Below, piece by piece: positions 5,710 through 56,533 of a stretch of DNA of 64,000 bases. The stretch is from a virus (lineage: Duplodnaviria > Heunggongvirae > Uroviricota > Caudoviricetes), in the IMG/VR virus record IMGVR_UViG_3300007072_000340, positions 30,216-94,215 of that record; one strand, written 5' to 3'. Numbering within the stretch: position 1 is the stretch's first letter; each line of letters starts with the position of its first letter. The notes beneath the pieces were generated by a model. It did no database searches and was not told where the DNA came from. It saw only the letters and a list, made by a program, of their open reading frames with translations. A program made the translations under genes and the position numbers.

Positions 5710-6237
5710 CTACCGGCCCCTTTTGTCTTCCAGCAGCAGGTAGGTCTGGTCCGGGCTGCTGCGGGTCGTGCAATCCGGCCAGACATTCAGGCCGGCGGCC
5801 GTGAACAAGCCGTGCAGCTTGTTGAAGCAGTGGCGCACCGTAGTCGGCACGCCCTTGGCACAGCCGGAAAGGACGGCATCCCGCCATTGGGCAAGGGTGC
5901 CGGTGACGACTGCCGCCTGTACGCCCCGCACGATGGTTTCCACCGCTACAAACGGAAGGCCCGCGCAAAGCTGAAGTATGTCGAGCATGTCTCGCTCGTC
6001 GGCAGCGATAAACGCGCTGAACGAAACGTGCTGCAATAGGTGGGGTGACAGCCCCACCGGTGCCCGCACGTCCCGAAGTGCTGCCAAGCAGCTCAGGAAC
6101 CGCTCGGCGTCCGATAGCTCCCGCCGGCAGGCGTCCGTAGATGCAGCGGGCGAGCGGCCCAACACCTTATGGCTGAGGCCAATGAAGGTGCGGAAGTCGA
6201 TGGATGGAACCTGGATTAGGACTGCATCAGGCATCAT
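5710..6237 (-). CDS. Hypothetical protein
   Basis: 175-aa ORF directly upstream of the MTase on the same strand; no recognisable motifs. Confidence 0.4.
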   Translation of the reverse strand: MMPDAVLIQVPSIDFRTFIGLSHKVLGRSPAASTDACRRELSDAERFLSCLAALRDVRAPVGLSPHLLQHVSFSAFIAADERDMLDILQLCAGLPFVAVETIVRGVQAAVVTGTLAQWRDAVLSGCAKGVPTTVRHCFNKLHGLFTAAGLNVWPDCTTRSSPDQTYLLLEDKRGR

Positions 6238-28380: not shown

Positions 28381-31300
28381 TTACAGGGTTGACGTGCCAC
28401 GCCGCAGTTCCCTTCGCAACTCGGCGGCGATGGACCTTGCCGTCTGGCGGCTTGATCCGCCGCCGTTCACAGTCACGTTGATGTCGCCGATGTTGGTGAT
28501 GCTGCCTCCTTCGCTCCGGTAAGCCGGCCGCACACCGGCGTTGATGGCGGTCAGTTCCGAGGCGAAGCGCCGCGCTGAGGCGGCGTTGATGACCACTTCC
28601 CCAGGCGAGAGCATCGCCGGAATCACGTCCGTGCCCTGGGGAGGCCCGCCGAAGGCCAGAAAACTCCAGACCTTCCTCCCCTGCGCCGCCGTCACCGCGG
28701 GCGGCGGCTCGACCGCCCAGGAGGCCGCCGCCAGGTCCCACATCGCGGAGGCCGCCGCTTGAATCTCGCCGGCCAGGCCCGCCATGCTCGGGATCGCGCT
28801 CAGCGCCGCCTGGGCCTGCTGCGCGCCCTCGCCCATCTCGGTCGCCGCCTGGGGATTCAGTTGGTCGATGATCCCCTTCAGCCGGTCGGCCTCCTGCCGC
28901 GCCTTCTCCAATTCAGCTCGGATGTCTCGGCGCTGACCCTCGGGCGTCCGCTGGATCGTCTTCATCCGCTCCGCCTCATCCGCCAGGGACTTCGCCCAGC
29001 CCAGTTGGCTGGTGATGAAATCCTTGTCGAACTGGGTCAGGGTCGGACTCTTGAGCAGTTCCGTGGCCTTCTTCTGTAGGTCCAGGAACTGGTCCATCCC
29101 GAATCCCTTGGGAGCCTGGGACAGCTTTTTGAACTGGTCGAACAGCTCGCCCAGGGCCTTCGCGTCCTTCTGGATGTCCCCGCCGCCGAAGATCGTGCTG
29201 ATGCCTTTCTTCGTGGCCTGGGCGAGGAACGTCCGCCAGTCTTCCATCGCGGCCCTGTAGACCTCCAGATTGGCCCCCAAGGCACCTTGAGCCGCCCTTT
29301 GGGCAATGGTGGACTGCGAGATCGCGTCCTGCTCGCGCTGCAACCGGGCTGCCAGATCGACCTGCTTCTGGTACTCCCTGGTGACGATCTCCGTCTGCTC
29401 GGCGGGGGTCTTGCCGGCGAGCATTTCCGGCGTGATAGTCCCGCCCGGCTTGACGAAGGGCTTCAGGGCGACCGAGACGGCGCCCAAGCCGTTTTCGATC
29501 TGGCTTCGCAGGGCATCAATCGTCTGGGGGGCGGCAAAGAGCTTCTGGACTTCCAGGTCCGAGATGCCGCCCTCCAGGGCCGCATTCACGCGCCGCCTGA
29601 GCGTGTCAAACTTGAGCATCTCGCCCAAGTCGATCTGGGTGGTGCCCGCCGTCCAGAGGCGCTGGAACTCGTCCATCTTCCTCTTCAAGTCTTCCGACTT
29701 GGCGGCCGACTTGAGCGGGTCGATGGGGCCTTTCTTGTCGAAGAGGTCAAGGTCTTCGAGGATGCCCTTCATCAAGACCTTCATGCGGTCCACGCGGACC
29801 TGCTCCTGGGCCGCCGCCTGGGCCGCCCGTGCGGCGCGGTTCTCGCTGTTCGTCTGGAATTGCCTTTCCGCGTCGATCTGTTGTCGAATGATCGACAGCG
29901 ACACCCGCTGGGCGTCGTCCAGAAGCCACTCGTTCTTCGTCGAGGAGGCAATCGACTCGGCCTCCTGGGCGTGGGCCATCGCCCGCTGGAAGATGGCCTG
30001 CGCCGCCTGCTGTTGGTCCGGGGTCTCGGCCCTGGCCAGTTGCGCGGCCGCCTCCCGCGCCAGGGAGAGGGCGTGCCGGCTATACTGCTCCTCCAGGTAG
30101 TAGGCGTTCTTGTACCCCAGCAACCGATTCTTCAATAGCAGGTCGTCATAGCGGCCTTGCAGGTCCGCCTGGCGCTTCATGGAATCGACGGCCGCCTGGT
30201 TGGCGGCGTTGGCGGCCGAACGGAACTGCTGGACGATCTTCTCGCGGGTCGAGATCATCTGCTGCATTGTGGTTCGCGACGAGGTGATTAGCTCTTCGTT
30301 GCTCTTCCGCGCTAGATCGACCTGCGCGTTGTACGCCTGCCGCACCACGGCCATGTACTGCTCCAGACGGCGGCTGGCCTCTTCATAGACCTTCTTGTTG
30401 GCGGCGATCCGCTCCTCGCTCGCCTTCTCTTCCGCCGCCAGCCGCTCTTGGACGGACTTGCGGAAGTTCTCGTTGGCGTTGGTGAGCACCGAGGCCAACC
30501 GTTGGTCCAGGAAGTCGGCACCCCAGACGACCATCGCAATCGGGGCCAGCACGTTGTTGAAAGCGTTGCCCAGCAGGCCGGCGTTGGCAGCCGCCAGCTT
30601 GGCGCGGAGCGAGAAGGCCATTAGCGCGCCGCCGGCAACGGCCAGCGGTTCGGCCAGCGTCGTCAAGGCGGTGGCGATGCCCTTCAAGCTGGCGACCAGC
30701 CCATCCGCCCCGCCCACCGCCTTGAGCAAGCCGCTGAGGAACTTGACCAGTTCCGGGCCGACCTCCGTGGCCAAGGCGACCTTGATCCTGTTCAGTTCTT
30801 TCGTGTACTGCTCGGCGTCGCTGGAGGTGAACGTCTTGAACGCCTCGTTCAAGGTGTCCCGCGAAGTCTTGCCCATCACGGCCAGGGCTTGCTCAGCCTG
30901 CTGGGCACCGGAGCCAGTCAAGCGGAGTTCCGCGTTCAAGGCGCGGATGTTACGGAACAAAGTGGCCGTCCCTGCCACATCTTCATTCTGGCTGTGGCGC
31001 AGCTTCTCAAAGGCCCCCTGGAGGCCCTCTGCACGAATGAGCTGCTGACCCGTCTCGTAGCCCAAGGCTCGCAACTCTTCCCGCATGTCCGTGGAGGGCT
31101 TGATGAGCGCAGCCAAGGCAGCCCGGAAGCCCGTGGCGGCCTCCGGGACGCGCTGCGAGCCGATCGTCAGGGCGATGATCGACGAGTTGACCTCATCCAG
31201 GCTGACCCCCAACTCGCTGGCGATTGGGACGATGCGGCCAATCACCGGCGTCAGGTCGGCACCGCGGGTGCGGCCCAACTCAATCGTCTTGAAGAACTTG

Positions 31301-49501: not shown

Positions 49502-49609
49502 AATCACGAAATGAGCGCGGCATGGCTTTCTGAACCAAGCTCTGTGCGTCTAACCAAAAAGGAAGGCCCGAAGGCCAAGATGATACCCGGCCTTCGGGCC
49601 TCAGTTTCG

Positions 49610-50722
49610 TCAGAGCAGGTTCACGACCCGCTCGGCCAGGCCCTTTTCGCCCAGCACGACGTTCAGCTTGCCGCTGGTGGCCACCTTCTCCAGGACTTCC
49701 AGTTCCCGGAGCCGCATGAGCGTCGGGTTGCCTTCCAGCACCTTGGCGGTGTTGGCCTGGCTGCGCATGGCCGCCGTCTCCTCACGGCGGACGATCAGGT
49801 TGGCCTCGGCCGCCTTCTTGGCCTCCGTGACCTTGTTCATCAGGTCCTTCATGTCACCCGGCAGGATCACGTCCCGGATTCCCACCGAGATCACCTCCAG
49901 ACCCAGCGCAGCCACCCGCTGCCGAACGATGGCCTCCAACTCCTTGGCCACGGCATCCTTGTCGGCGAGGAACTGGTCGAGTTCGCGAGCGCCAACCACG
50001 GCCCGCAGCGCCAACTGCGCCTCGCGGTAGAGCGCCTGACGGGCGTCGTCGGCCGCGCTCAGGGCCTTGTGGGCGTCGGCCACGCGGTAGGCGGCCACCG
50101 CGTTAAGCCGCAGCGTCACCTTGTCGGCGGTCATAATCTCCTGGCCGCCGATGTCCAGCATGGTCTCGCGCAGGTCCACCGGCACGAGCATGACCTTGGC
50201 CATGTTCTTCCAGAAGGCGTACTTGCCCGGCGGCAGGGTCTCGACGTAGCGGCCGTCCTCGAACAGCACGCCCACGTGGCCCTGCTCCACGGCAAAGGCG
50301 TCCAGGAGCCGGTCGGCCAACGCCGAGCGGACAATCACCTGAAGGTCCTTGTGCTCGAAGCGGACCTTGCGGGCGTCGATCACTTCCGTGGTGACCTCCC
50401 GGAAGGTGGTCCAGTAGGCGTACAGGCCCGGCGGCAGGATGTGGCTGAAACGGCCATCCACCCACACCAGCGCCCGCTCGTAGTCCTTCAGGTCCAGCAC
50501 GACTGCGCGGTCCTTCAGCGCACCCGACTTGACGATCACGTCGAGATTCTCGTGGGCGAGCCACGGCGCGCGCTGCGAGACGACCTCCACCTTGACCTTG
50601 CCCAGCGGGTCGAAGAACCAGTGGCGACCAGCGCCGAGCAAGCCCTTGAACTCGCCGTCGTGGAAGTACAGACCCATTTCGTAGCTGCGAATCCTGATGA
50701 TCTTCAGCGCAAGCACAGTCAT
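49610..50722 (-). CDS. SPFH/Band-7 domain protein
   Basis: Stomatin-like core plus C-terminal ELEVLEKVATSGKLNVVLG typical of band-7 proteins. Confidence 0.6.
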   Translation of the reverse strand: MTVLALKIIRIRSYEMGLYFHDGEFKGLLGAGRHWFFDPLGKVKVEVVSQRAPWLAHENLDVIVKSGALKDRAVVLDLKDYERALVWVDGRFSHILPPGLYAYWTTFREVTTEVIDARKVRFEHKDLQVIVRSALADRLLDAFAVEQGHVGVLFEDGRYVETLPPGKYAFWKNMAKVMLVPVDLRETMLDIGGQEIMTADKVTLRLNAVAAYRVADAHKALSAADDARQALYREAQLALRAVVGARELDQFLADKDAVAKELEAIVRQRVAALGLEVISVGIRDVILPGDMKDLMNKVTEAKKAAEANLIVRREETAAMRSQANTAKVLEGNPTLMRLRELEVLEKVATSGKLNVVLGEKGLAERVVNLL

Positions 50723-51157
50723 CCTTCACCTTCCTTCCTACCGCTTGTTGCGGCAGTCTCCGTCTCATTTCCGGTCATGTCAGGCAAAGCCGTTGGGCGG
50801 CGGAACCAGTGGCGATCACACGGAGGAATGCGGAATGTCGCTTGAGCATCGACGTAGCCTTGGGCGGCACGGCAGCTTCCATCGGGCTAGTCGTCGCCGG
50901 GGGCAAGCCCCGGCGGAAGTCACCCGACATCCGCTGCCACTTGCCGAAGGTCCGACGAAGCGGTATCCACGCACTGCATGGCACTCGGCCGTGCTGCCAC
51001 CCGCGATGGCGTGCCGAGCTTGCGCCGATTCCTCCGGGAGTCGCCCGATGGGCGGACTGCCCGGATTCCTCAACGCCGCCGGTCGTTCATTCGCCGGTGG
51101 CCGATCACACATTGGCCCGCCTCCCTCGGGCCGCTTGGAGCAGGGTTTCAGCCTGCG

Positions 51158-51230
51158 GTCTTGGTACGGGAGTCGAACCCGCGACAGCCAGATTCACGGT
51201 CTGGTGCTCTATCCGCTGAGCTAACCTGGT
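51158..51230 (-). tRNA. tRNA-like (anticodon GUG, His-like), probable pseudogene
   Basis: T-arm GCGGG/TTCGACT/CCCGT and D-arm present, anticodon loop CCGTGAA (C33); acceptor stem pairs poorly. Confidence 0.3.
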
Positions 51231-51339
51231 TGACACGACCTTCGGTCAGAACCCATTGACGGAACAAACGCCGCCAACCGCCTCATGTGAGGACGGGGCA
51301 ACGTGCGCCGTTGGCCTGGCCGTATCATTGCTTATGAAG

Positions 51340-51410
51340 AGACGCCGGTGGGAATCGAACCCACTTGAACCGGGTTGCGGCCGGTCGCCTTGCCATCTGG
51401 CTCCAGCGTC
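51340..51410 (-). tRNA. tRNA-Cys(GCA)
   Basis: Acceptor GACGCUG/CGGCGUC, T-loop TTCGATT, anticodon loop CCGCAAC (C33). Confidence 0.65.
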
Positions 51411-51413
51411 AAG

Positions 51414-51486
51414 CGTCCTCGCCAGGAGTCGAGCCTGGTCTTCGACCTTCGCAAGGTCGCGTGCGAATCCCCCACACTCCGAGGAC
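51414..51486 (-). tRNA. tRNA-Arg(GCG)
   Basis: Perfect 7-bp acceptor GTCCTCG/CGAGGAC; anticodon loop TTGCGAA; T-loop CTCGACT (C54). Confidence 0.55.
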
Positions 51487-51499
51487 CTTCGTTACTCAG

Positions 51500-51571
51500 C
51501 GCCCCGCCGAGGAATTGAACCCCGTCTTGCAGTTCCGAAGACTGCCGTGCTGTCCGGCACACTCGCAGGGC
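51500..51571 (-). tRNA. tRNA-Arg(UCG)
   Basis: Anticodon arm ACTGC/TTCGGAA/GCAGT... read as codon CGA on + strand; T-loop TTCAATT; acceptor with one G-U. Confidence 0.55.
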
Positions 51572-51583
51572 TTTTGCGTCGAG

Positions 51584-51676
51584 TATCCCGACCAGGAATC
51601 GAACCCGGGCACCGCCGCGCAGCGGTGGTCGCTGGAGCTTCGGAGGCTCCGATGCGATCCGCTACACCATCGGGAC
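51584..51676 (-). tRNA. tRNA-Arg(CCG)-like with 18-nt palindromic hairpin (caccgc cgcgca gcggtg) in the variable region
   Basis: T-arm CCGGG/TTCGATT/CCTGG, anticodon arm GGAGC-TTCGGAG-GCTCC on + strand (codon CGG); 93 nt total. Confidence 0.4.
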
Positions 51677-51762
51677 ATGAACCAAGGAGCCGACGACTGG
51701 ACTTGCACCAGCATCAAGCGGTTTACAGGACCGCTGCCTTTCTGTTCGGCCATGTCGGCAAG

Positions 51763-51832
51763 CACGAGCGCGAGGAGTCGAACCCCGTGCGGCAGGGTTG
51801 GAGTCTGCCTGCTCTCCCAAGAGCACGCTCGT
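51763..51832 (-). tRNA. tRNA-Trp(CCA)
   Basis: + strand anticodon loop gttggag (codon TGG, U33); acceptor ACGAGCG/CGCTCGT; T-arm CGGGG/TTCGACT/CCTCG. Confidence 0.5.
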
Positions 51833-51876
51833 GTATTGCCCCCGGCCACGAGGACCGGGGGCTTCTGGCGTAACGA

Positions 51877-52473
51877 CTACTTCTGCAACTCCACGTTCCA
51901 GTAGGCTTCGCTGATGAACTTGGACCAGCTTGCGATCCGCATGGTGTGGTCCGCGTACAGCGGCTTCCACGTGGGCCGGACGGGCTGCTTGCGCACGCGC
52001 ATCCGGGCCTGCTCCGGCGTCCGGTCAGCCTTCCGCTTGTTGCAGGCCATGCAAGCCAGCACGCAGTTTTCCCAACACGACACGCCACCTTGTGACCGCG
52101 GCAGCACGTGGTCGATCGTCAACTCCTCACTGCCCGGCTGCGCGCCGCAGTATTGGCAGGTGTAATGGTCCCGCTTGAACACGTTGCGACGGCTGAAGGT
52201 CACCGCGCCCAGCGGAAGCCGATCGTAGCCGGTCAATGCCACGACCTCCGGCACCCGCAGCCGGAACCGAACTGCCTGGACGAACGCCTCGCCATCCTTC
52301 GGCTTCAGCTTCGACCAGTCCGCCCAGGTGTAAAGCTGGAAGTCTTCGGGGTCCACCACGCGGGCCGACTCGTTCCAGAGCAGCACCAACGCACGCTCCA
52401 CGGTCGCTACGTGGACCGGCTGCCAGTTGCGGTTCAGGACCAGCGTCGGTTGCTCAAGGACCTTGGTGACCAT
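51877..52473 (-). CDS. HNH endonuclease embedded in the tRNA array
   Basis: HNH core CQYCGAQPGSEELTIDHVLPRSQGGVSCWENCVLACMACNKRKADR; flanked by tRNA-Trp (downstream) and tRNA-His (upstream). Confidence 0.8.
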   Translation of the reverse strand: MVTKVLEQPTLVLNRNWQPVHVATVERALVLLWNESARVVDPEDFQLYTWADWSKLKPKDGEAFVQAVRFRLRVPEVVALTGYDRLPLGAVTFSRRNVFKRDHYTCQYCGAQPGSEELTIDHVLPRSQGGVSCWENCVLACMACNKRKADRTPEQARMRVRKQPVRPTWKPLYADHTMRIASWSKFISEAYWNVELQK

Positions 52474-52492
52474 TGTGATCTCCGTCAGTAAG

Positions 52493-52567
52493 GGTGTCCG
52501 GGGAGAGTCGAACTCCCACCCTCTGGTTCACAGCCAGCCGTGCAGTGACCGCTACACCACGGACACC
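52493..52567 (-). tRNA. tRNA-His(GUG)
   Basis: Anticodon loop CTGTGAA, extra 5' G(-1) opposite C73 (His hallmark), acceptor GTGTCCG/CGGACAC. Confidence 0.7.
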
Positions 52568-52585
52568 ATGCGATTGTTGTCAGCA

Positions 52586-52655
52586 CCCCGACCGGGACTC
52601 GAAGTGCGGAACACCTCGGTAGAAACGAGGCATGATGTCCATTTCACCATCGGGG
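52586..52655 (-). tRNA. tRNA-Arg(UCU)-like, irregular T-arm
   Basis: Clean anticodon arm cctcg-gtagaaa-cgagg (codon AGA) and acceptor ccccgac/atcgggg, but T-stem does not pair. Confidence 0.35.
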
Positions 52656-52659
52656 CAAG

Positions 52660-52749
52660 CGGAAGGCATGGGATTTGAACCCACATGACACCTTTCGGCG
52701 TCGCACGGTTTAGCAAACCGGCCCGGCCAACCGTATCCGGCTACCTTCC
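52660..52749 (-). tRNA. tRNA-Ser(GCU)
   Basis: Type II, 90 nt; anticodon loop ttagcaa on + strand (codon AGC); long variable hairpin gacacc-tttc-ggcgtc; G73. Confidence 0.65.
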
Positions 52750-52764
52750 GTAATCACGCATCAG

Positions 52765-52835
52765 TGGACCGACCGGGAATTGAACCCGGATCTCCAGAAT
52801 GCCGTTCTGGTGTCTTCCCCTTGGACCATGAGCCC
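52765..52835 (-). tRNA. tRNA-Ala(GGC)
   Basis: G3:U70 pair present, A73; anticodon loop ACGGCAT (C33); T-arm CCGGG/TTCAATT/CCCGG. Confidence 0.7.
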
Positions 52836-52864
52836 GTTGTCGTTGTAGTGGACCCGACCACCGC

Positions 52865-52940
52865 TTCGCGGCGGTGCCCGGAGTCGAACCCATCGCACCG
52901 ATCTTGCACCCGATCAGTCGCCTCCACGGAACATGCCAGC
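52865..52940 (-). tRNA. tRNA-like element, unresolved (degenerate T-arm)
   Basis: gagtcgaaccc T-loop signature at 52882 but no consistent cloverleaf found by hand. Confidence 0.2.
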
Positions 52941-52951
52941 CCACGAATCGA

Positions 52952-53042
52952 AAGGTCTGTCCGGGAATTGAACCGGGCACCATGCGCAGCATGGTCCTTC
53001 CGCCTTACCGAGGAGGTGTGCTACCGAAACACCTACAGACCC
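52952..53042 (-). tRNA. tRNA-like element with palindromic insertion accatgc-gca-gcatggt, unresolved identity
   Basis: aattgaa T-loop signature, D-arm gtg-tgctaccgaaa-cac, acceptor aggtctg/cagaccc; anticodon not assignable. Confidence 0.25.
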
Positions 53043-53047
53043 TCAAG

Positions 53048-53120
53048 TGATCCCCGCTGGCATCGAACCAGCACTTTCCTGGTTGTCACCCAGGCGTCTT
53101 TGCCATTGGACCAGGGGATC
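53048..53120 (-). tRNA. tRNA-Val(GAC)
   Basis: Acceptor GATCCCC/GGGGATC perfect; anticodon loop ttgtcac on + strand (codon GTC); A73. Confidence 0.7.
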
Positions 53121-53127
53121 ATTCCAG

Positions 53128-53201
53128 TGACCGGAGTGGGAGTCGAACCCACAGGCACGAGGCTCTCGACCTCGCCGCTATGCCAGTTTGCGTACCCGGT
53201 C
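53128..53201 (-). tRNA. tRNA with Leu anticodon GAG but short (5-nt) variable loop
   Basis: Anticodon arm cgagg-ctctcga-cctcg (codon CTC, C33), D-arm cgc-tatgccagttt-gcg, A73; 74 nt. Confidence 0.5.
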
Positions 53202-53285
53202 GTGGCGGGTCCGGGGGTCGCACCCGGCGTTCCCGGCTTATGAGGCCGGGCTGAGCACTGGCCCACCCGCAGCATGTTTCCGAGT

Positions 53286-53372
53286 TGCAGGCCCCGGTAT
53301 CGAACCGGGCGCACCGGCCCGACCAACCTTCGGTCGGTGCCCGGAGCCAGTTGGGCACCTGCCGCGCCTGCA
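53286..53372 (-). tRNA. tRNA-like element, unresolved (about 85 nt)
   Basis: Perfect T-arm cccgg-tatcgaa-ccggg and acceptor tgcaggc/gcctgca; internal arms not resolved. Confidence 0.25.
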
Positions 53373-53408
53373 ATTCCTCAATGACCACCCGCGCCTGCAA
53401 TTCCTCAA

Positions 53409-53492
53409 TGACCACGGGGAGAGTCGAACTCCCAATGCCGCAAGGGCACGACGTTCTGACCGTCGCGTGTCTGCCAATTCCACCACATGGTC
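53409..53492 (-). tRNA. tRNA-Leu(CAG)
   Basis: Type II with 15-nt variable arm; anticodon loop ttctgac on + strand (codon CTG); D-arm gtg-tctgccaattc-cac; A73. Confidence 0.7.
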
Positions 53493-53501
53493 ATGCTGCC
53501 T

Positions 53502-53594
53502 GAGTGGCCCGTGCGGGAGTTGAACCCGCCTTTCCGGCTGACCATGCTGCGCATGGTGCCCGGGCCGGCGTCCTGTACCGATAGACGAACGAGC
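53502..53594 (-). tRNA. tRNA-like paralogue of tRNA-Glu(55603) carrying an 18-nt palindromic insertion in the anticodon loop
   Basis: Shares acceptor, T-arm, D-arm (gtc-ctgtaccgata-gac ga acgagcc) with 55603..55675; anticodon stem ccggc/gccgg encloses 25 nt including ccatgc-tgc-gcatgg. Confidence 0.35.
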
Positions 53595-53602
53595 CAGTTG
53601 AG

Positions 53603-53686
53603 TGCGCCGGGCAGGAGTTGAACCTGCATAGCCTTTCGGGCTGGCTGCTTTACAGGCAGTTGGGCACGCCGATGCCCAGCCGACGC
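53603..53686 (-). tRNA. tRNA-Tyr(GUA)
   Basis: Type II; variable hairpin agcc-tttcg-ggct; anticodon loop tttacag (codon TAC); A73. Confidence 0.7.
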
Positions 53687-53700
53687 ATGTTGTTCGTGAG

Positions 53701-53774
53701 TGGCGCAGGTGGGACTCGAACCCGCAATCACCAAGGTTTGAGCTTGGCCGCTTTGCCGATTTGCGTACCGCGCC
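53701..53774 (-). tRNA. tRNA with Leu anticodon CAA but short variable loop
   Basis: Anticodon arm ccaag-gtttgag-cttgg (codon TTG, U33); D-arm cgc-tttgccgattt-gcg; A73; 74 nt. Confidence 0.5.
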
Positions 53775-53788
53775 GCCACTGGTCGAAA

Positions 53789-53864
53789 GCGCCCTCGACG
53801 GGATTTGAACCCGCGATCTCCTGCGTGACAGGCAGGCGAGCACTCCAGGCTGCTCCACGAGGAC
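53789..53864 (-). tRNA. tRNA-Asp(GUC)
   Basis: Anticodon arm cctgc-gtgacag-gcagg (codon GAC); T-loop TTCAAAT; G73. Confidence 0.7.
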
Positions 53865-53876
53865 AAACATTTCCAG

Positions 53877-53951
53877 TGGCCCAGGCGGGACTCGAACCCA
53901 CAGCATCCCTGGTTCTAAGCCAAGGTGGTCTGCCAGATTGCCTACGGGGCC
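53877..53951 (-). tRNA. tRNA with Leu anticodon UAG but short variable loop
   Basis: Anticodon arm cctgg-ttctaag-ccaag (codon CTA); D-loop tctgccagatt like 53128 and 53701; A73. Confidence 0.45.
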
Positions 53952-53952
53952 G

Positions 53953-54046
53953 TGCCCAGGGCCGGAGTCGAACCCGAAACCGCCTGCCACCACCGCTACG
54001 CGGCGGTGCCCGAGCCAAGCCGCTCTGCCAATTGGCGTACCTGGGC
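53953..54046 (-). tRNA. tRNA-like element with hairpin caccgc-tacgcg-gcggtg, unresolved
   Basis: D-arm cgc-tctgccaattg-gcg and acceptor gcccagg/cctgggc match the 53128/53701/53877 family; T-stem and anticodon arm irregular. Confidence 0.25.
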
Positions 54047-54053
54047 GATCAAG

Positions 54054-54125
54054 TAGCCCCGGATGGAGTCGAACCATCGTTTCCTGGGTGTGGACCAAGC
54101 GTCGTTGCCGTTGGACCACGGGGCT
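54054..54125 (-). tRNA. tRNA-Val(CAC)
   Basis: Anticodon arm cctgg-gtgtgga-ccaag (codon GTG, C33); D-arm gtc-gttgccgttg-gac as in Val(GAC); A73. Confidence 0.65.
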
Positions 54126-54137
54126 GAGTCGCCAAAG

Positions 54138-54208
54138 TGGAGTCACCGAGAGTCGCACTCGGATTTCCATCTTGCGGAGGTGGCGTCGTCCTGTTGGACC
54201 ATGACCCC
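54138..54208 (-). tRNA. tRNA-Ala(CGC)
   Basis: G3:U70, A73; anticodon loop ttgcgga (codon GCG, C33); T-loop TGCGACT non-canonical. Confidence 0.55.
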
Positions 54209-54214
54209 AAAAGG

Positions 54215-54300
54215 CGGAAGCCGTGGGACTCGAACCCACAAGCGGCTGCTGGCCGCCACCTGTTTTCAAGACAGGCCCCTCATCCGGCCGGATGACTTCC
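54215..54300 (-). tRNA. tRNA-Ser(UGA)
   Basis: Type II; variable hairpin gcggc-tgctg-gccgc; anticodon arm cctgt-tttcaag-acagg (codon TCA); G73. Confidence 0.7.
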
Positions 54301-54309
54301 GTATTGAAG

Positions 54310-54380
54310 CTGCGGAGGCTGGAATCGAACCAACATGAAGACGTTCAGAGCGTCTCATCCTACCGTTAGATGACTCCGCA
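54310..54380 (-). tRNA. tRNA-Gln(CUG)
   Basis: Anticodon arm agacg-ttcagag-cgtct (codon CAG); perfect acceptor tgcggag/ctccgca; G73. Confidence 0.7.
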
Positions 54381-54418
54381 TTGCGTTGCTCATCGAGACA
54401 CCGCCATGTCGTCGCAAG

Positions 54419-54489
54419 TTCGGGGAGGAGGGGTCAAACCTCCGTCTCCTGGTTCAAAGCCAGACGGCCTACCACTAGCCGATCCCCGA
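54419..54489 (-). tRNA. tRNA-Gln(UUG)
   Basis: Anticodon arm cctgg-ttcaaag-ccaga (codon CAA); T-loop TTTGACC atypical. Confidence 0.55.
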
Positions 54490-54490
54490 G

Positions 54491-54562
54491 AGTGCCCTGC
54501 GGGAATCGAACCCGCCTAGCCAGCTTGGAAGGCTGGAGCCTTTGCCGATCGGCCAAGGGCAC
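54491..54562 (-). tRNA. tRNA-Gly(UCC)
   Basis: Fully canonical cloverleaf checked base by base; anticodon loop CTTCCAA; U73. Confidence 0.8.
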
Positions 54563-54567
54563 GAAGG

Positions 54568-54651
54568 CGGAAGGTGAGGGAGTCGAACCCCCAAGGCTCG
54601 TCGCTCGGCCGCTTTCGGGGTGGCTGCCATCGCCAGTTGGCTTGACCTTCC
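54568..54651 (-). tRNA. tRNA-Ser(CGA)
   Basis: Type II; anticodon arm gccgc-tttcggg-gtggc (codon TCG, C33); G73; perfect acceptor ggaaggt/accttcc. Confidence 0.55.
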
Positions 54652-54666
54652 GTTCTCTCCAAAAGG

Positions 54667-54754
54667 CTCCGGCGGCTGGACTCGAACCAGCGGTGGGGCA
54701 AACGCCACGTCGCCTTAACAGGCCGATCCCTGCTACCAACTCGGGTACACCGGA
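54667..54754 (-). tRNA. tRNA with Asn anticodon GUU carrying a 16-nt hairpin in the variable region
   Basis: Anticodon arm tcgcc-ttaacag-gccga (codon AAC); D-arm ccc-tgctaccaactc-ggg; 88 nt. Confidence 0.4.
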
Positions 54755-54762
54755 TCACAAAG

Positions 54763-54836
54763 TCAGGACGGCGGGATTTGAACCCGCGCTCTCGTGCTCC
54801 CGAAGCACGCGGAATACCGGGCTTTCCTACGTCCTG
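54763..54836 (-). tRNA. tRNA-Pro(CGG)
   Basis: Anticodon arm cgtgc-tcccgaa-gcacg (codon CCG); D-arm ggaa-taccgggct-ttcc; A73. Confidence 0.7.
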
Positions 54837-54846
54837 TTAATCAAGA

Positions 54847-54916
54847 GCGCCCAGCGGGAGTTGAACCCGCGCTTCCGCCTCGGCAAGGCGGCAGGCTGCC
54901 GCTACATCATGGGCGC
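54847..54916 (-). tRNA. tRNA-Gly(GCC)
   Basis: Anticodon arm ccgcc-tcggcaa-ggcgg (codon GGC); perfect acceptor; U73. Confidence 0.7.
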
Positions 54917-54949
54917 GATCTCATGTGGGCCGGATTGTCAAAGATCAAG

Positions 54950-55021
54950 AGCACCGGGCGGGACTCGAACCCGCGTCGCCGCATTACGGGTGCGGTGTCC
55001 TTGCCGCTGGACGACCAGTGC
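54950..55021 (-). tRNA. tRNA-Thr(CGU)
   Basis: Anticodon arm ccgca-ttacggg-tgcgg (codon ACG, C33). Confidence 0.6.
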
Positions 55022-55032
55022 GTTTCTCGCAG

Positions 55033-55105
55033 TGGGACCAGAGGAACTTGAACCCTCACCTGGCGGATTAAGAGTCCGCTGTGCTGCCGCTAGCACCTTG
55101 ATCCC
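55033..55105 (-). tRNA. tRNA-Lys(CUU)
   Basis: Anticodon arm gcgga-ttaagag-tccgc (codon AAG); T-loop TTCAAGT; A73. Confidence 0.7.
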
Positions 55106-55121
55106 GTCTTTTGTCCACCAG

Positions 55122-55194
55122 TCGGCGCGGAGGGAGTCGAACCCTCGACCTGACCCTTATAAGAGGTCTGCTCTCACCGCTGAGCTACACGCCA
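55122..55194 (-). tRNA. tRNA-Ile(UAU)
   Basis: Anticodon loop CTTATAA (codon ATA on + strand); D-arm gctc-tcaccgct-gagc; A73. Confidence 0.6.
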
Positions 55195-55199
55195 GCGAG

Positions 55200-55271
55200 T
55201 AGGGCCGGAGGGGATCGAACCCACATCTGCCGGATTAAAAGTCCGGTGTGCTGCCATTACACCACGACCCT
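55200..55271 (-). tRNA. tRNA-Lys(UUU)
   Basis: Anticodon arm ccgga-ttaaaag-tccgg (codon AAA); A73. Confidence 0.7.
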
Positions 55272-55341
55272 GTACTTGGTCGGGCGTATGCGTTTCAACC
55301 GGGTCAACATCGTTTCACTCCTCGTGTTTGTTCGCGCCAAG

Positions 55342-55413
55342 TGGTAGTCCTGAGAATCGAACTCAGCGCCGCGCGGTTATCAGCCGCGTTCGGGCAACCA
55401 GCCCTCGACTACC
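55342..55413 (-). tRNA. tRNA-Ile(GAU)
   Basis: Anticodon arm cgcgg-ttatcag-ccgcg (codon ATC); perfect T-arm ctgag-aatcgaa-ctcag; A73. Confidence 0.65.
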
Positions 55414-55439
55414 TCGTGCCAACGTCGTTGTCGATCCAG

Positions 55440-55512
55440 TCGGGATGGCAGGACTCGAACCTGCGTCTCCGTGCTCCCAAAGCACGTGGGCTCGCCGCTA
55501 CCCTACATCCCG
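55440..55512 (-). tRNA. tRNA-Pro(UGG)
   Basis: Anticodon arm cgtgc-tcccaaa-gcacg (codon CCA); same anticodon stem as Pro(CGG); A73. Confidence 0.7.
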
Positions 55513-55520
55513 CACCTCAG

Positions 55521-55595
55521 TCAGAACGGCCGGATTTGAACCGGCGATCTCCTGCACCCCGAGCAGGCGCGATACCCAGGCTTCGCTACGTTCTG
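55521..55595 (-). tRNA. tRNA-Pro(GGG)
   Basis: Anticodon arm cctgc-accccga-gcagg (codon CCC, C33); perfect acceptor cagaacg/cgttctg; A73. Confidence 0.6.
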
Positions 55596-55602
55596 ATCGC
55601 AG

Positions 55603-55675
55603 TAGCCCGTGCGGGAGTCGAACCCGCCTTTTCGGCTTGAAGGGCCGATGTCCTCAACCGATAGACGAACGAGCC
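55603..55675 (-). tRNA. tRNA-Glu(UUC)
   Basis: Anticodon arm tcggc-ttgaagg-gccga (codon GAA, C33); D-arm gtc-ctcaaccgata-gac. Confidence 0.6.
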
Positions 55676-55734
55676 GCGTCGGCGCGCACCTTCCACGCAG
55701 CCGGAACCCAGGTTGGCGCGCACGCTCAGCGTAG

Positions 55735-55806
55735 TGGGCCGGGAGGTGCTCGAACCCTCGTCTGCTGCTTTTCAGGCCGCCGCTACACCATCTCAGCTAC
55801 CAGCCC
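55735..55806 (-). tRNA. tRNA-Phe(GAA)
   Basis: Anticodon arm gctgc-ttttcag-gccgc (codon TTC); D-arm gct-acaccatctc-agc; first tRNA of the array in transcription order. Confidence 0.55.
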
Positions 55807-55810
55807 AACG

Positions 55811-55852
55811 AAAAAACCCGGTGTCACTTCCACTTGTGACACCGGGTTTCTT
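55811..55852 (-). terminator. Rho-independent terminator (strong on minus strand, bidirectional-like)
   Basis: 11-bp perfect stem cccggtgtcac/gtgacaccggg, loop ttccactt, A-run one side and T-run the other; sits upstream of the tRNA array, downstream of the 56.2-57.5 kb genes. Confidence 0.7.
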
Positions 55853-56242
55853 GAAACCCATCGTGACGTAAGGTCAAGCGTCACAAGCGCAAAGGATGCA
55901 CGGGCAGGGTATTCGCCGGTTGACCGGCGTAACGCCCTGTGCATCGTGGTTCGCTTGCTATACTTGACCTAAACGAAGTCATCGCCCTTCTCGCAAGTTC
56001 TGGTGCTCCTGGAAACCGGCCGACTGCATCCGTCGGCCCTTATACGTATAGACGCCGCAGGGGCCAAGAAGGTTCATCGGATTTTTCGTCGTCGTCGCCC
56101 CAGTAATAGTATAGATACTCTTCGAGGGCGGCTTATTCCCTCGAAAATGCCGAAAAGCCGCTACCAGCCTGCCGCTTGGCCCTGTTGCCTGCCGGCTCGC
56201 GCCGGCCGGTGGAGGACTCTCCGCGCGGGGACGCGACCGCGG

Positions 56243-56533
56243 CTATGGCCGTTGTTTCTTCTTGCCGGCGGTCTCGGCCGCCGTCCGCATCTCTGTTTGC
56301 ACAGCTCGCGTGTCGGCGATGATCGCCGACAGGGCCTCGCAGAAAGTCTGCGCATCCAGCAATCGCAAGGGGTTCTGCATCGACGCAGCCGGAAAGGTGA
56401 CAATAATCTCAGAGCCACGACCGGCCCTGTAGTTCCTGATCTCGGAACGAATCACCATCGCGCTGCTTGCGGTCCCCTGGAAAGGTTGCGCCGTCAATCG
56501 AACGCCCCAGTCAAAGTCCTCACGCTCGATCAA
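56243..56533 (-). CDS. Hypothetical protein
   Basis: 96-aa ORF MIEREDFDWGVRLTAQ... Confidence 0.4.
   Translation of the reverse strand: MIEREDFDWGVRLTAQPFQGTASSAMVIRSEIRNYRAGRGSEIIVTFPAASMQNPLRLLDAQTFCEALSAIIADTRAVQTEMRTAAETAGKKKQRP

Follow-up and report, generated by a model that had tools for sequence, protein, structure and literature searches.

Repetitive extragenic palindromes (REP/REPIN), mobilised by RAYT Y1 transposases and grouped into GTAG- and CGTC-tagged superfamilies, have been described together with a mention of the palindromic element RPE-1 (PMC3733652). Short GC-rich mobile hairpins that recur in or next to tRNA and rRNA genes are known from eukaryotic organelles, as the GC clusters of yeast mitochondria and the repetitive hairpin-forming elements of sponges (PMC2800124). 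Here we describe a hairpin element of 24-26 nt that is present six times in a tRNA gene array of a phage of the class Caudoviricetes (IMG/VR record IMGVR_UViG_3300007072_000340, positions 30,216 to 94,215; this whole stretch of 64,000 nt is called the window). The six hairpins are likely to be copies of a very short REP-like repeated DNA palindrome of Planctomycetota genomes, mobile or recombining, that overwrites unpaired loops. The closest known kind is REP/REPIN, and a literature search by literal sequences and keywords found no description of the element.

When all occurrences of the 8-mer CGGGCACC in the window were lined up, six sites shared the architecture C-CGGGC-ACC-(4-5 nt)-G-N-A-(complement)-GGT-C(G), with the element consensus 5'-CGGGC ACC R-N3-4 G-N-A N3-4'-T GGT CG-3' (Table 1). 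A covariance model of the element returned exactly these six matches in 64 kb (E 9e-14 to 2e-4; next best E = 0.13), and the 8-mer alone was not enriched window-wide (10 matches against 6.0 expected). All six copies lay inside the 4.65-kb array (chance under uniform placement about 1.5e-7) and fell within 2.4 kb, with both orientations of the element represented inside one co-oriented array. The region was 100% identical in contigs from three independent datasets (ENA ERZ27245800, JGI 3300022554 and Logan SRR5580902), so the hairpins are not assembly errors. Every hairpin listed in the first-pass annotation was found in its place. That annotation had recognised four copies in two families; the four are real but two were missed (copies 2 and 4), and both of its stem types, ATGC/GCAT (family a) and GCCGC/GCGGT (family b), exist as stem variants of one architecture together with a third, GACC/GGTT; of the two missed copies, one has this third stem and the other the GCCGC stem. 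The hairpin it had reported in the Asn(GUU) gene does exist but gave no match to the family covariance model, which ruled it out as a diverged copy; it was common only to the closest arrays (L010 and L099; L numbers denote the loci compared), and Asn genes elsewhere were 71-77 nt long. Elsewhere in the window, CGGGCACC at 6039-6066 (-) is followed by a different hairpin, GGTGGGG-CTGTCA-CCCCACC, which was not among the covariance-model matches (E<=10) and is probably unrelated and terminator-like.

Table 1. Positions in the window of the element copies, the tRNA genes that carry them and other features of the region.
Feature	Position	Strand	Sequence	Score	Remarks
Copy 1	51606-51631	+	CGGGCACCGCCGCGCAGCGGTGGTCG	46.8 bits	antisense to tRNA-Arg(CCG)
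Copy 2	52855-52880	-	CGGGCACCGCCGCGAAGCGGTGGTCG	46.4 bits	sense; Ala(UGC)-derived pseudo-tRNA
Copy 3	52974-52997	+	CGGGCACCATGCGCAGCATGGTCC	26.9 bits	antisense to tRNA-Thr(GGU)
Copy 4	53320-53343	-	CGGGCACCGACCGAAGGTTGGTCG	30.6 bits	sense; Met/Ile2(CAU)-derived gene
Copy 5	53539-53562	-	CGGGCACCATGCGCAGCATGGTCA	20.5 bits	sense; Glu(CUC)-derived gene
Copy 6	53987-54012	-	CGGGCACCGCCGCGTAGCGGTGGTGG	36.3 bits	sense; 'Leu'(UAA)-derived gene
tRNA-Arg(CCG), 94 nt	51583..51676	-		39.3 bits vs Rfam tRNA	host of copy 1; intact cloverleaf
Ala(UGC)-derived pseudo-tRNA	52848..52944	-			host of copy 2; not called by ARAGORN
tRNA-Thr(GGU), 91 nt	52952..53042	-		24.5 bits vs Rfam tRNA (threshold 29)	host of copy 3
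Met/Ile2(CAU)-derived tRNA-like gene	53285..53372	-			host of copy 4; no anticodon
Glu(CUC)-derived tRNA-like gene	53505..53595	-			host of copy 5; no anticodon; 53502-53594 in the first-pass annotation
'Leu'(UAA)-derived tRNA-like gene	53953..54046	-		22.7 bits vs Rfam tRNA	host of copy 6; no anticodon
Asn hairpin	54693-54708	-	GTGGCGTTTGCCCCAC		variable region of tRNA-Asn(GUU) 54665-54754; outside the family
tRNA gene array	51157..55806	-			36 ARAGORN tRNAs, at least 4 element-disrupted tRNA-like genes, 3 weak Rfam tRNA matches
SPFH/Band_7 gene	49610-50722				adjoins the array; array and SPFH gene form one module common to Planctomycetota contigs
HNH endonuclease gene	51877-52473	-			inside the array; PADLOC matches generic (PtuB, Cas9 HNH)
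Five tandem ORFs, 343-351 aa	22454-27697	-			head-to-tail; downstream of the tape-measure gene

Complementary arms were found in 52 of 59 outer-pattern matches in the genome loci, with the searched stem left out, compared with only 3 of 82 chance equal-arm pattern matches among those listed from IMG/VR, where matches to the degenerate pattern are mostly chance and were used as a chance control only. This comparison of arms indicates that the hairpin structure is selected or constrained. The loop was always G-N-A closed by C-G (187 of 187 hairpin copies; GCA 82, GAA 76, GTA 22, GGA 7) and the termini were conserved exactly across phyla. Of the 187 copies, 177 had G.T as the first variable pair and the remaining 10 had A-T. 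Read on the complementary strand, G.T becomes an A x C mismatch, which is neither Watson-Crick nor wobble, and the strand starting with CGGGC would therefore be the folding strand. A C(GNA)G core is the motif of 'mini-hairpin DNA' (GCGNAGC, CCGAAGG), in which a C-G closing pair surrounds a G-N-A triloop with a sheared G.A pair; the motif is known for its extreme stability to heat and nucleases and is found in the priming signals of phage G4 and ssiA and in N4 hairpin promoters (PMC13037366). Judged by its sequence, the element carries this d(GCGNAGC)/d(CCGAAGG) motif. Each of the six copies was predicted to fold into a simple hairpin that has a 5' bulge; the folding energies ranged from -4.8 to -9.6 kcal/mol (z -1.2 to -2.8; standard DNA parameters, no mini-hairpin bonus). 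When copies with 4-bp and 5-bp stems were aligned together by MAFFT, the result was inconsistent with the structure.

Sixty-one sites had an uninterrupted homologue among the loci and provided filled/empty pairs. In all 61 a 22-24-nt core and the following CG replaced 1-5 nt (3-5 in 60 of them) plus 2 nt of the empty allele, with about 5-7 loop nt lost and 18-21 nt gained net per insertion, and no target duplication was present in any pair. The element sits in unpaired loops of foldable sequences, namely the variable, anticodon, D and T loops of tRNAs and the tips of other palindromes. The same signature was observed at one such non-tRNA tip, where TTTCG-TCTCA-GCGAAA has become TTTCG-element-GCGAAA, and flanks were mutually complementary over at least 5 bp in 24% of copies versus 8% at control positions. 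CGGG as a pre-existing target motif or a duplication was ruled out, as the empty alleles carry unrelated bases there. Copying of the inner stem from the target, an idea that came from a GTGC case in Pro(CGG), was also ruled out as a general rule, as most stems are unrelated to the target and several stem types occur per site.

Two of the six copies in the window lie where the variable loop meets the 5' T stem. In the Arg(CCG) gene copy 1 replaces 5 nt (TGGAC, + strand; empty homologue in L010), the T stem survives with one G.U pair, and among the element-bearing genes of the window only this one could still be functional. Hits at this junction can be tolerated, giving a false 'long variable arm'. 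Copy 3 leaves a C x C mismatch in the T stem of Thr(GGU) (empty homologue in L024), a gene whose anticodon arm shows C33 and a U x C mismatch in the stem; its score is below the Rfam threshold, and it is probably decaying. In the Ala(UGC)-derived pseudo-tRNA, copy 2 has taken the place of CATCC, which formed the 3' strand of the T stem, and so destroys that stem (L091 empty, L108 filled); the anticodon loop of this gene has also mutated to 8 nt. The other three copies lie in anticodon loops. Copy 4 replaces CCATAA, anticodon-loop positions 33-38 including CAU, of the Met/Ile2(CAU)-derived gene (L036 empty; L024 filled, 98.9% identical), and copy 6 the anticodon loop of a 75-nt 'Leu'(UAA)-type tRNA (L010 empty; L091, L016 and L108 filled). 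Copy 5 replaces about 5 nt of the anticodon loop of the Glu-derived gene (CCTCA, including the CUC anticodon; L091 empty). The 18 extra nt that the first-pass annotation placed in this loop, by comparison with the tRNA-Glu at 55603-55675, do lie there, but alignment showed the anticodon to be replaced and not merely split, and the closest intact homologue is the Glu(CUC) gene of L091. Overall, four of the six genes have lost either their anticodon or one half of the T stem; as read from their sequences, these four can clearly no longer decode, a fifth is probably decaying and the sixth may remain functional. The Met-derived gene is preceded, at 53354-53407 (-), by a tandem duplication of 27 nt (TGAGGAATTGCAGGCGCGG...) that repeats its leader and 5' acceptor strand.

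Outside the phage, a scan of species-representative genomes for the exact 24-mer CGGGCACCGCCGCGNAGCGGTGGT returned at least 120 stretches. Of the 80 titles listed, 72 were Planctomycetota (including Pirellulales, Planctomycetaceae and Thermoguttaceae), 6 Gemmatimonadota and 2 other groups, and the palindromes first seen in the phage are thus present at 120 or more loci of bacterial genomes, Planctomycetota and Gemmatimonadota among them. The exact ATGC-variant element had zero matches in IMG/VR, and no Rfam family covered the element in the window or in 12 non-tRNA loci. The window and 122 genome loci, in which at most 8 kb was visible per copy, contained 189 hairpin-forming copies with 22 distinct inner stem-loop sequences and about 15 stem-arm types; several metagenome-assembled genomes contributed 5-9 loci each among the matches listed. 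These copies occupied about 132 distinct flank contexts among the listed loci and the window, 61 of them tRNA and 71 non-tRNA. Inside tRNA genes (83 of the 189 copies) placement was assigned to the variable region or 5' T stem for 29 copies, the anticodon arm for 25, the D arm for 11, the T arm for 2 and class II arms for 2. The non-tRNA contexts included, besides intergenic DNA, an IS3 orfA, a longer palindromic repeat with the element at its tips and, in Gemmatimonadota, a larger dispersed repeat. About 79% of the non-tRNA copies were intergenic, and 25 were sense and 26 antisense to the nearest gene (genes called from open reading frame (ORF) length and GC3 only). Inverted doublets of the element were occasional (L024, L036).

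Several of these contexts have features of their own. The IS3-family orfA holds the element in its helix-turn-helix region in L021, L064, L098 and L117 (YRWR-element-GGM), with the frame apparently shifted as judged by eye. A second Planctomycetaceae repeat family, GGGACTGTCCC-GATTTTCG-loop-CGAAAATG-GGACTGTCCC (L029, L050, L052, L056, L060, L065, L067, L082, L093, L095, L124), has a loop of 5 nt (TCTCA or TGTCA) or the 26-nt element instead, and the same tip in L017 bears a different 41-nt insert. The larger dispersed repeat of Gemmatimonadota contains the hairpin as an internal module and has inverted CAACGACGGAG / CTCGTCGTCG-like ends and further GGTGCCC-containing hairpins (L061, L069, L072, L073, L075, L092, L104-L106, L115, L120); a conserved orthologous non-coding RNA was ruled out there by the differing outer flanks of this repeat. 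Where the element replaced part of a Pro tRNA, ARAGORN called spurious tRNA-Arg(CCG) and tRNA-Gly(ACC) genes (L099:1266-1358, L122:77-171 and many others) because the hairpin was read as an anticodon arm.

Occupancy differed between closely related arrays. The window and L091 are about 95-97% identical and share only the filled Leu-derived gene, with occupancy differing at three other comparable sites (the Glu- and Ala-derived genes and Arg). The window and L024 both carry the element in the Met-derived gene; in L036, which lies on one 767-kb contig with L024, that gene is empty. Nine orthologous sites carried different stem subfamilies in different genomes, indicating recurrent hits at hot spots or conversion between copies.

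Like REP/REPIN sequences, the element is an imperfect palindrome within 20-40 nt with many copies per genome, conserved unpaired nt at one end and a stem that varies by compensatory change, with occasional inverted doublets and occasional gene insertion. Outside the arrays it appears mostly intergenic by the crude gene calls, and 83 of all 189 copies lie inside tRNA genes. It differs from them in its ends, a 5' CGGGC tag and a 3' GGTCG in place of GTAG or CGTC tags; its sequence is absent from the supplement of PMC3733652. No RAYT was found near element copies (with approximate queries of low sensitivity, in at most 8 kb per copy), and, unlike REP/REPIN, the element favours tRNA-gene loops and replaces target loop bases. 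Miniature inverted-repeat transposable elements (MITEs) have terminal inverted repeats and a target-site duplication and are usually 50-500 bp long. The first-pass suggestion of a MITE-like mobile palindrome agrees with the finding of the element at about 132 distinct sites, tRNA genes and other DNA alike, with either orientation represented and with presence varying between near-identical arrays; in the strict sense it does not hold, as the element has only 24-26 nt, makes no duplication and removes 5-7 target nt. Rickettsia palindromic elements (RPEs) are about 100-150 bp long and typically lie in frame within proteins. These and other small palindromic repeats that invade genes, RNA genes among them, resemble the element as selfish palindromes tolerated in functional genes at structurally permissive positions; to our knowledge RPEs neither replace hairpin loops nor are shared with phages. 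The organelle hairpin repeats belong to eukaryotic organelles, have no sequence relationship to the element and show different insertion signatures.

On our reading of a REP-like palindrome that overwrites loops, the element would act at the DNA level and fold, as single-stranded DNA, on one particular strand. Its spread would occur in trans, through a host enzyme or a process of breakage and templated repair that attacks exposed loops; candidate agents are an HUH-type or structure-specific nuclease with joining, or repair of a loop break from another copy. In a redundant tRNA array it would be tolerated or neutral. Several features suggest a single-stranded DNA process: the G.T pair is strand-specific, the core is a DNA mini-hairpin, loops on either strand of a tRNA gene are targets, and loop bases are lost with no duplication made. 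More tentatively, and as a possibility that we rate below even, this may be an undescribed class of ultra-small mobile DNA, in which exposed loops of folded single-stranded DNA are replaced by a pre-formed mini-hairpin through loop excision and templated or ligated insertion, without an element-encoded protein.

Several observations weigh against a mobile REP-like palindrome. No mobilising enzyme was found: tblastn with IS608 TnpA, E. coli RAYT and ISDra2 TnpA (approximate queries of low sensitivity) gave nothing at E<=0.1 in the loci or the window, and clustering of the ORFs next to copies gave no recurrent transposase-like cluster. Loss of target bases without duplication marks no well-studied transposition pathway, and the process could be recombinational rather than true transposition. 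Position was linked to orientation, with 23 antisense and 6 sense copies in the variable region and 16 sense and 9 antisense in the anticodon arm, which might reflect constraints at the RNA level. Four diverged arrays carry the element in the Leu(UAA)-derived gene with its anticodon-stem pairing kept, a retention that fits selection on a tRNA-like RNA as well as it fits neutrality. Finally, the genome loci were picked by one stem variant, which biases the copy frequencies, and the gene calls behind the strand comparison were crude.

These last RNA-level observations bear on the alternative that the tRNA bodies are scaffolds for a functional RNA hairpin, with sense copies giving tRNA-shaped RNAs that display a CGGGC-bulged hairpin. 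Such an RNA could be a decoy, ligand or guide for a host or phage protein, e.g., a tRNA-targeting defence nuclease. Four of the six window copies are sense, three of them forming a coaxial extension right at the end of an anticodon stem that is otherwise intact, the stems of the Leu(UAA)-derived version are still paired in the four diverged arrays, and the conserved G.T would be a legitimate G.U pair in the sense RNA. PMC12803027 proposes tRNA arrays as anti-defence units, and PMC13096335 describes a tRNA-cleaving defence system. The same hairpin, however, occurs antisense in tRNAs, in intergenic DNA without strand bias, in IS3 orfA and nested in other repeats; its occupancy varies between arrays that are about 95% identical, one sense copy destroys the T stem and thus the scaffold, and the element has no Rfam family match. 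We consider the scaffold role unlikely.

A functional site at the DNA level, copied by gene conversion or kept by selection and not a selfish element, appears slightly less likely still. It could serve as a hairpin promoter, as a signal for single-strand priming, as a protein-binding or topology site of the sort proposed for REPs, or as a site that modulates replication. The C(GNA)G core shared with G4/ssiA priming signals and N4 hairpin promoters (PMC13037366) would suit such a site, as would termini exactly conserved across phyla and the lack of a detected transposase and of target duplication. Disrupted tRNA genes and an interrupted IS3 orfA are hard to see as selected placement, the six phage copies are bunched and not spaced along the genome, and presence varies between close relatives.

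The first-pass annotation had also raised nuclease target sites, for or against which no evidence emerged, and mini-introns, removed from the pre-tRNA to leave functional tRNAs. The net 18-21 nt is an intron-like length near that of short archaeal introns, several copies lie in the anticodon loop, and the Glu-like gene has one possible boundary at 37/38. For the anticodon-loop copies this is rejected: empty homologues show that the filled alleles lack the anticodon triplet itself (Glu CUC, Met CAU, Leu UAA and, in L010, Thr CGU), so excision cannot restore a decoding tRNA. After the best-fitting removal of 18-20 nt the loop becomes N-CGGG-C-N and not a 7-nt loop with a proper anticodon: regardless of the tRNA body, it has C33 and C37, and 'GGG' or 'CGG' stands as a spurious anticodon; removing the element length minus 4 nt turned 83 of the 189 sites into ARAGORN-called tRNAs. 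Splicing is also argued against by the copies that run antisense to the tRNA, sit in a D or T arm or lie in DNA outside tRNA genes. Unlike the bulge-helix-bulge (BHB) introns of archaea and eukaryotes and the group I introns of bacterial anticodon loops, the element is orientation-independent and has no catalytic core: there was no Intron_gpI match in 50500-56500 at E<=1, and, judged by the net insert of 18-21 nt and the predicted simple hairpin fold, a BHB motif at the exon-intron junctions appears to be absent. Splicing is thus very improbable for the family as a whole.

Bacterial class II tRNAs are those for Leu, Ser and Tyr. Equally improbable is that the hairpins are adaptive long variable arms, turning class I into class II-like tRNAs with a changed synthetase identity or resistance to variable-loop nucleases (a defence system cutting the tRNA variable loop is described in PMC13096335): those of Arg(CCG) and Thr(GGU) do form a stem-loop exactly at the class II arm site, between the anticodon and T stems, as in class II tRNAs and allo-tRNAs with long variable arms, and ARAGORN accepts both, but close orthologues lack the arm (L010, L091, L024), which excludes ordinary class II arms, the isotypes are wrong, the sequence is that of a genome-wide repeat found identically in the loops of anticodon, D and T arms and also outside tRNA genes, the T stem is partly overwritten, the arm has an A x C mismatch in the tRNA sense, and Thr(GGU) has gathered stem mismatches.

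The window is identified as phage by a GpA-type large terminase, a tape-measure protein and the HNH endonuclease inside the array. No isolate had a terminase with more than about 26% identity to that of this phage (best, Thermus phages), and megablast of the array against INPHARED found no relative. The array and SPFH module (window 49564-55984) was present at 75-90% nucleotide identity in Planctomycetota contigs of up to 2.6 Mb (L010, L024, L036, L042, L065, L089, L091, L110, L121, L122), with homology ending at the module borders as seen within the 8-kb loci. Altogether 39 of the 122 loci had tRNA arrays; the densest contained 39 tRNAs in 8 kb and most contained 13-39. These arrays were homologous to the array of the window, spacers included. 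The SPFH protein had one relative in IMG/VR (L001), without tRNAs or elements. Because the module is shared with Planctomycetota, the host of the phage is presumed from sequence to be a planctomycete and the array to be a module exchanged between phage and host.

Other features of the array and its surroundings were also recorded. No link was found between the HNH endonuclease gene and the hairpins; L091 and L122 match the window DNA across this stretch and probably carry the gene too. C33 replaces the near-universal U33 in 11 of the 36 called tRNAs (window 51157-55675, by ARAGORN anticodon positions), at 51157, 51339, 51686, 52764, 52952, 53127, 54053, 54949, 55520, 55602 and others, examples being His-GUG, Cys, Thr-UGU, Thr-CGU, Ala-GGC, Leu-GAG, Val-CAC, Pro-GGG and Glu-UUC; constraint may be relaxed here, or the anticodon loops may have changed in ways that let them escape nucleases aimed at tRNAs. 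Bacterial tRNA-Leu is expected to have a long variable arm. The tRNAs with Leu anticodons GAG, CAA and UAG are only 75-76 nt long and have none (53127-53201, 53700-53774, 53876-53951), the sole class II Leu of the window is Leu-CAG (53408-53493), and the short 'Leu' type is kept in related arrays (e.g., L010:3209-3291). Beside the array, L024, L036, L091, L121 and L122 encode a large ATPase of SMC/Rad50-like type whose coiled coil contains a CxxC zinc hook; its best PADLOC match is LmuB of Lamassu (E = 1.4e-9), and it may be a defence gene adjoining the tRNA array. Elsewhere in the window, the five tandem ORFs of Table 1 may be paralogous tail or fibre genes.

The odd phage 'tRNAs' with long arms or 25-nt anticodon loops seen here are insertion products and mostly dead genes, neither bacterial mini-introns nor recoding tRNAs. 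They are also an annotation trap, since a false anticodon arm produces spurious tRNA-Gly(ACC) and tRNA-Arg(CCG) calls in such arrays. Loop replacement, loss of target bases, absence of duplication and recurrent hits at the same loops form a signature that points outside the textbook pathways of DNA movement. If an ultra-small mobile element of this kind is indeed at work, its targets would be the cloverleaves of tRNA genes and the tips of palindromes, and it would cross phyla (Planctomycetota and Gemmatimonadota) and pass between host and phage, eroding and remodelling tRNA arrays. Phages of Planctomycetota are poorly known, and the element and the shared array and SPFH module tie an otherwise unplaceable phage to this phylum.

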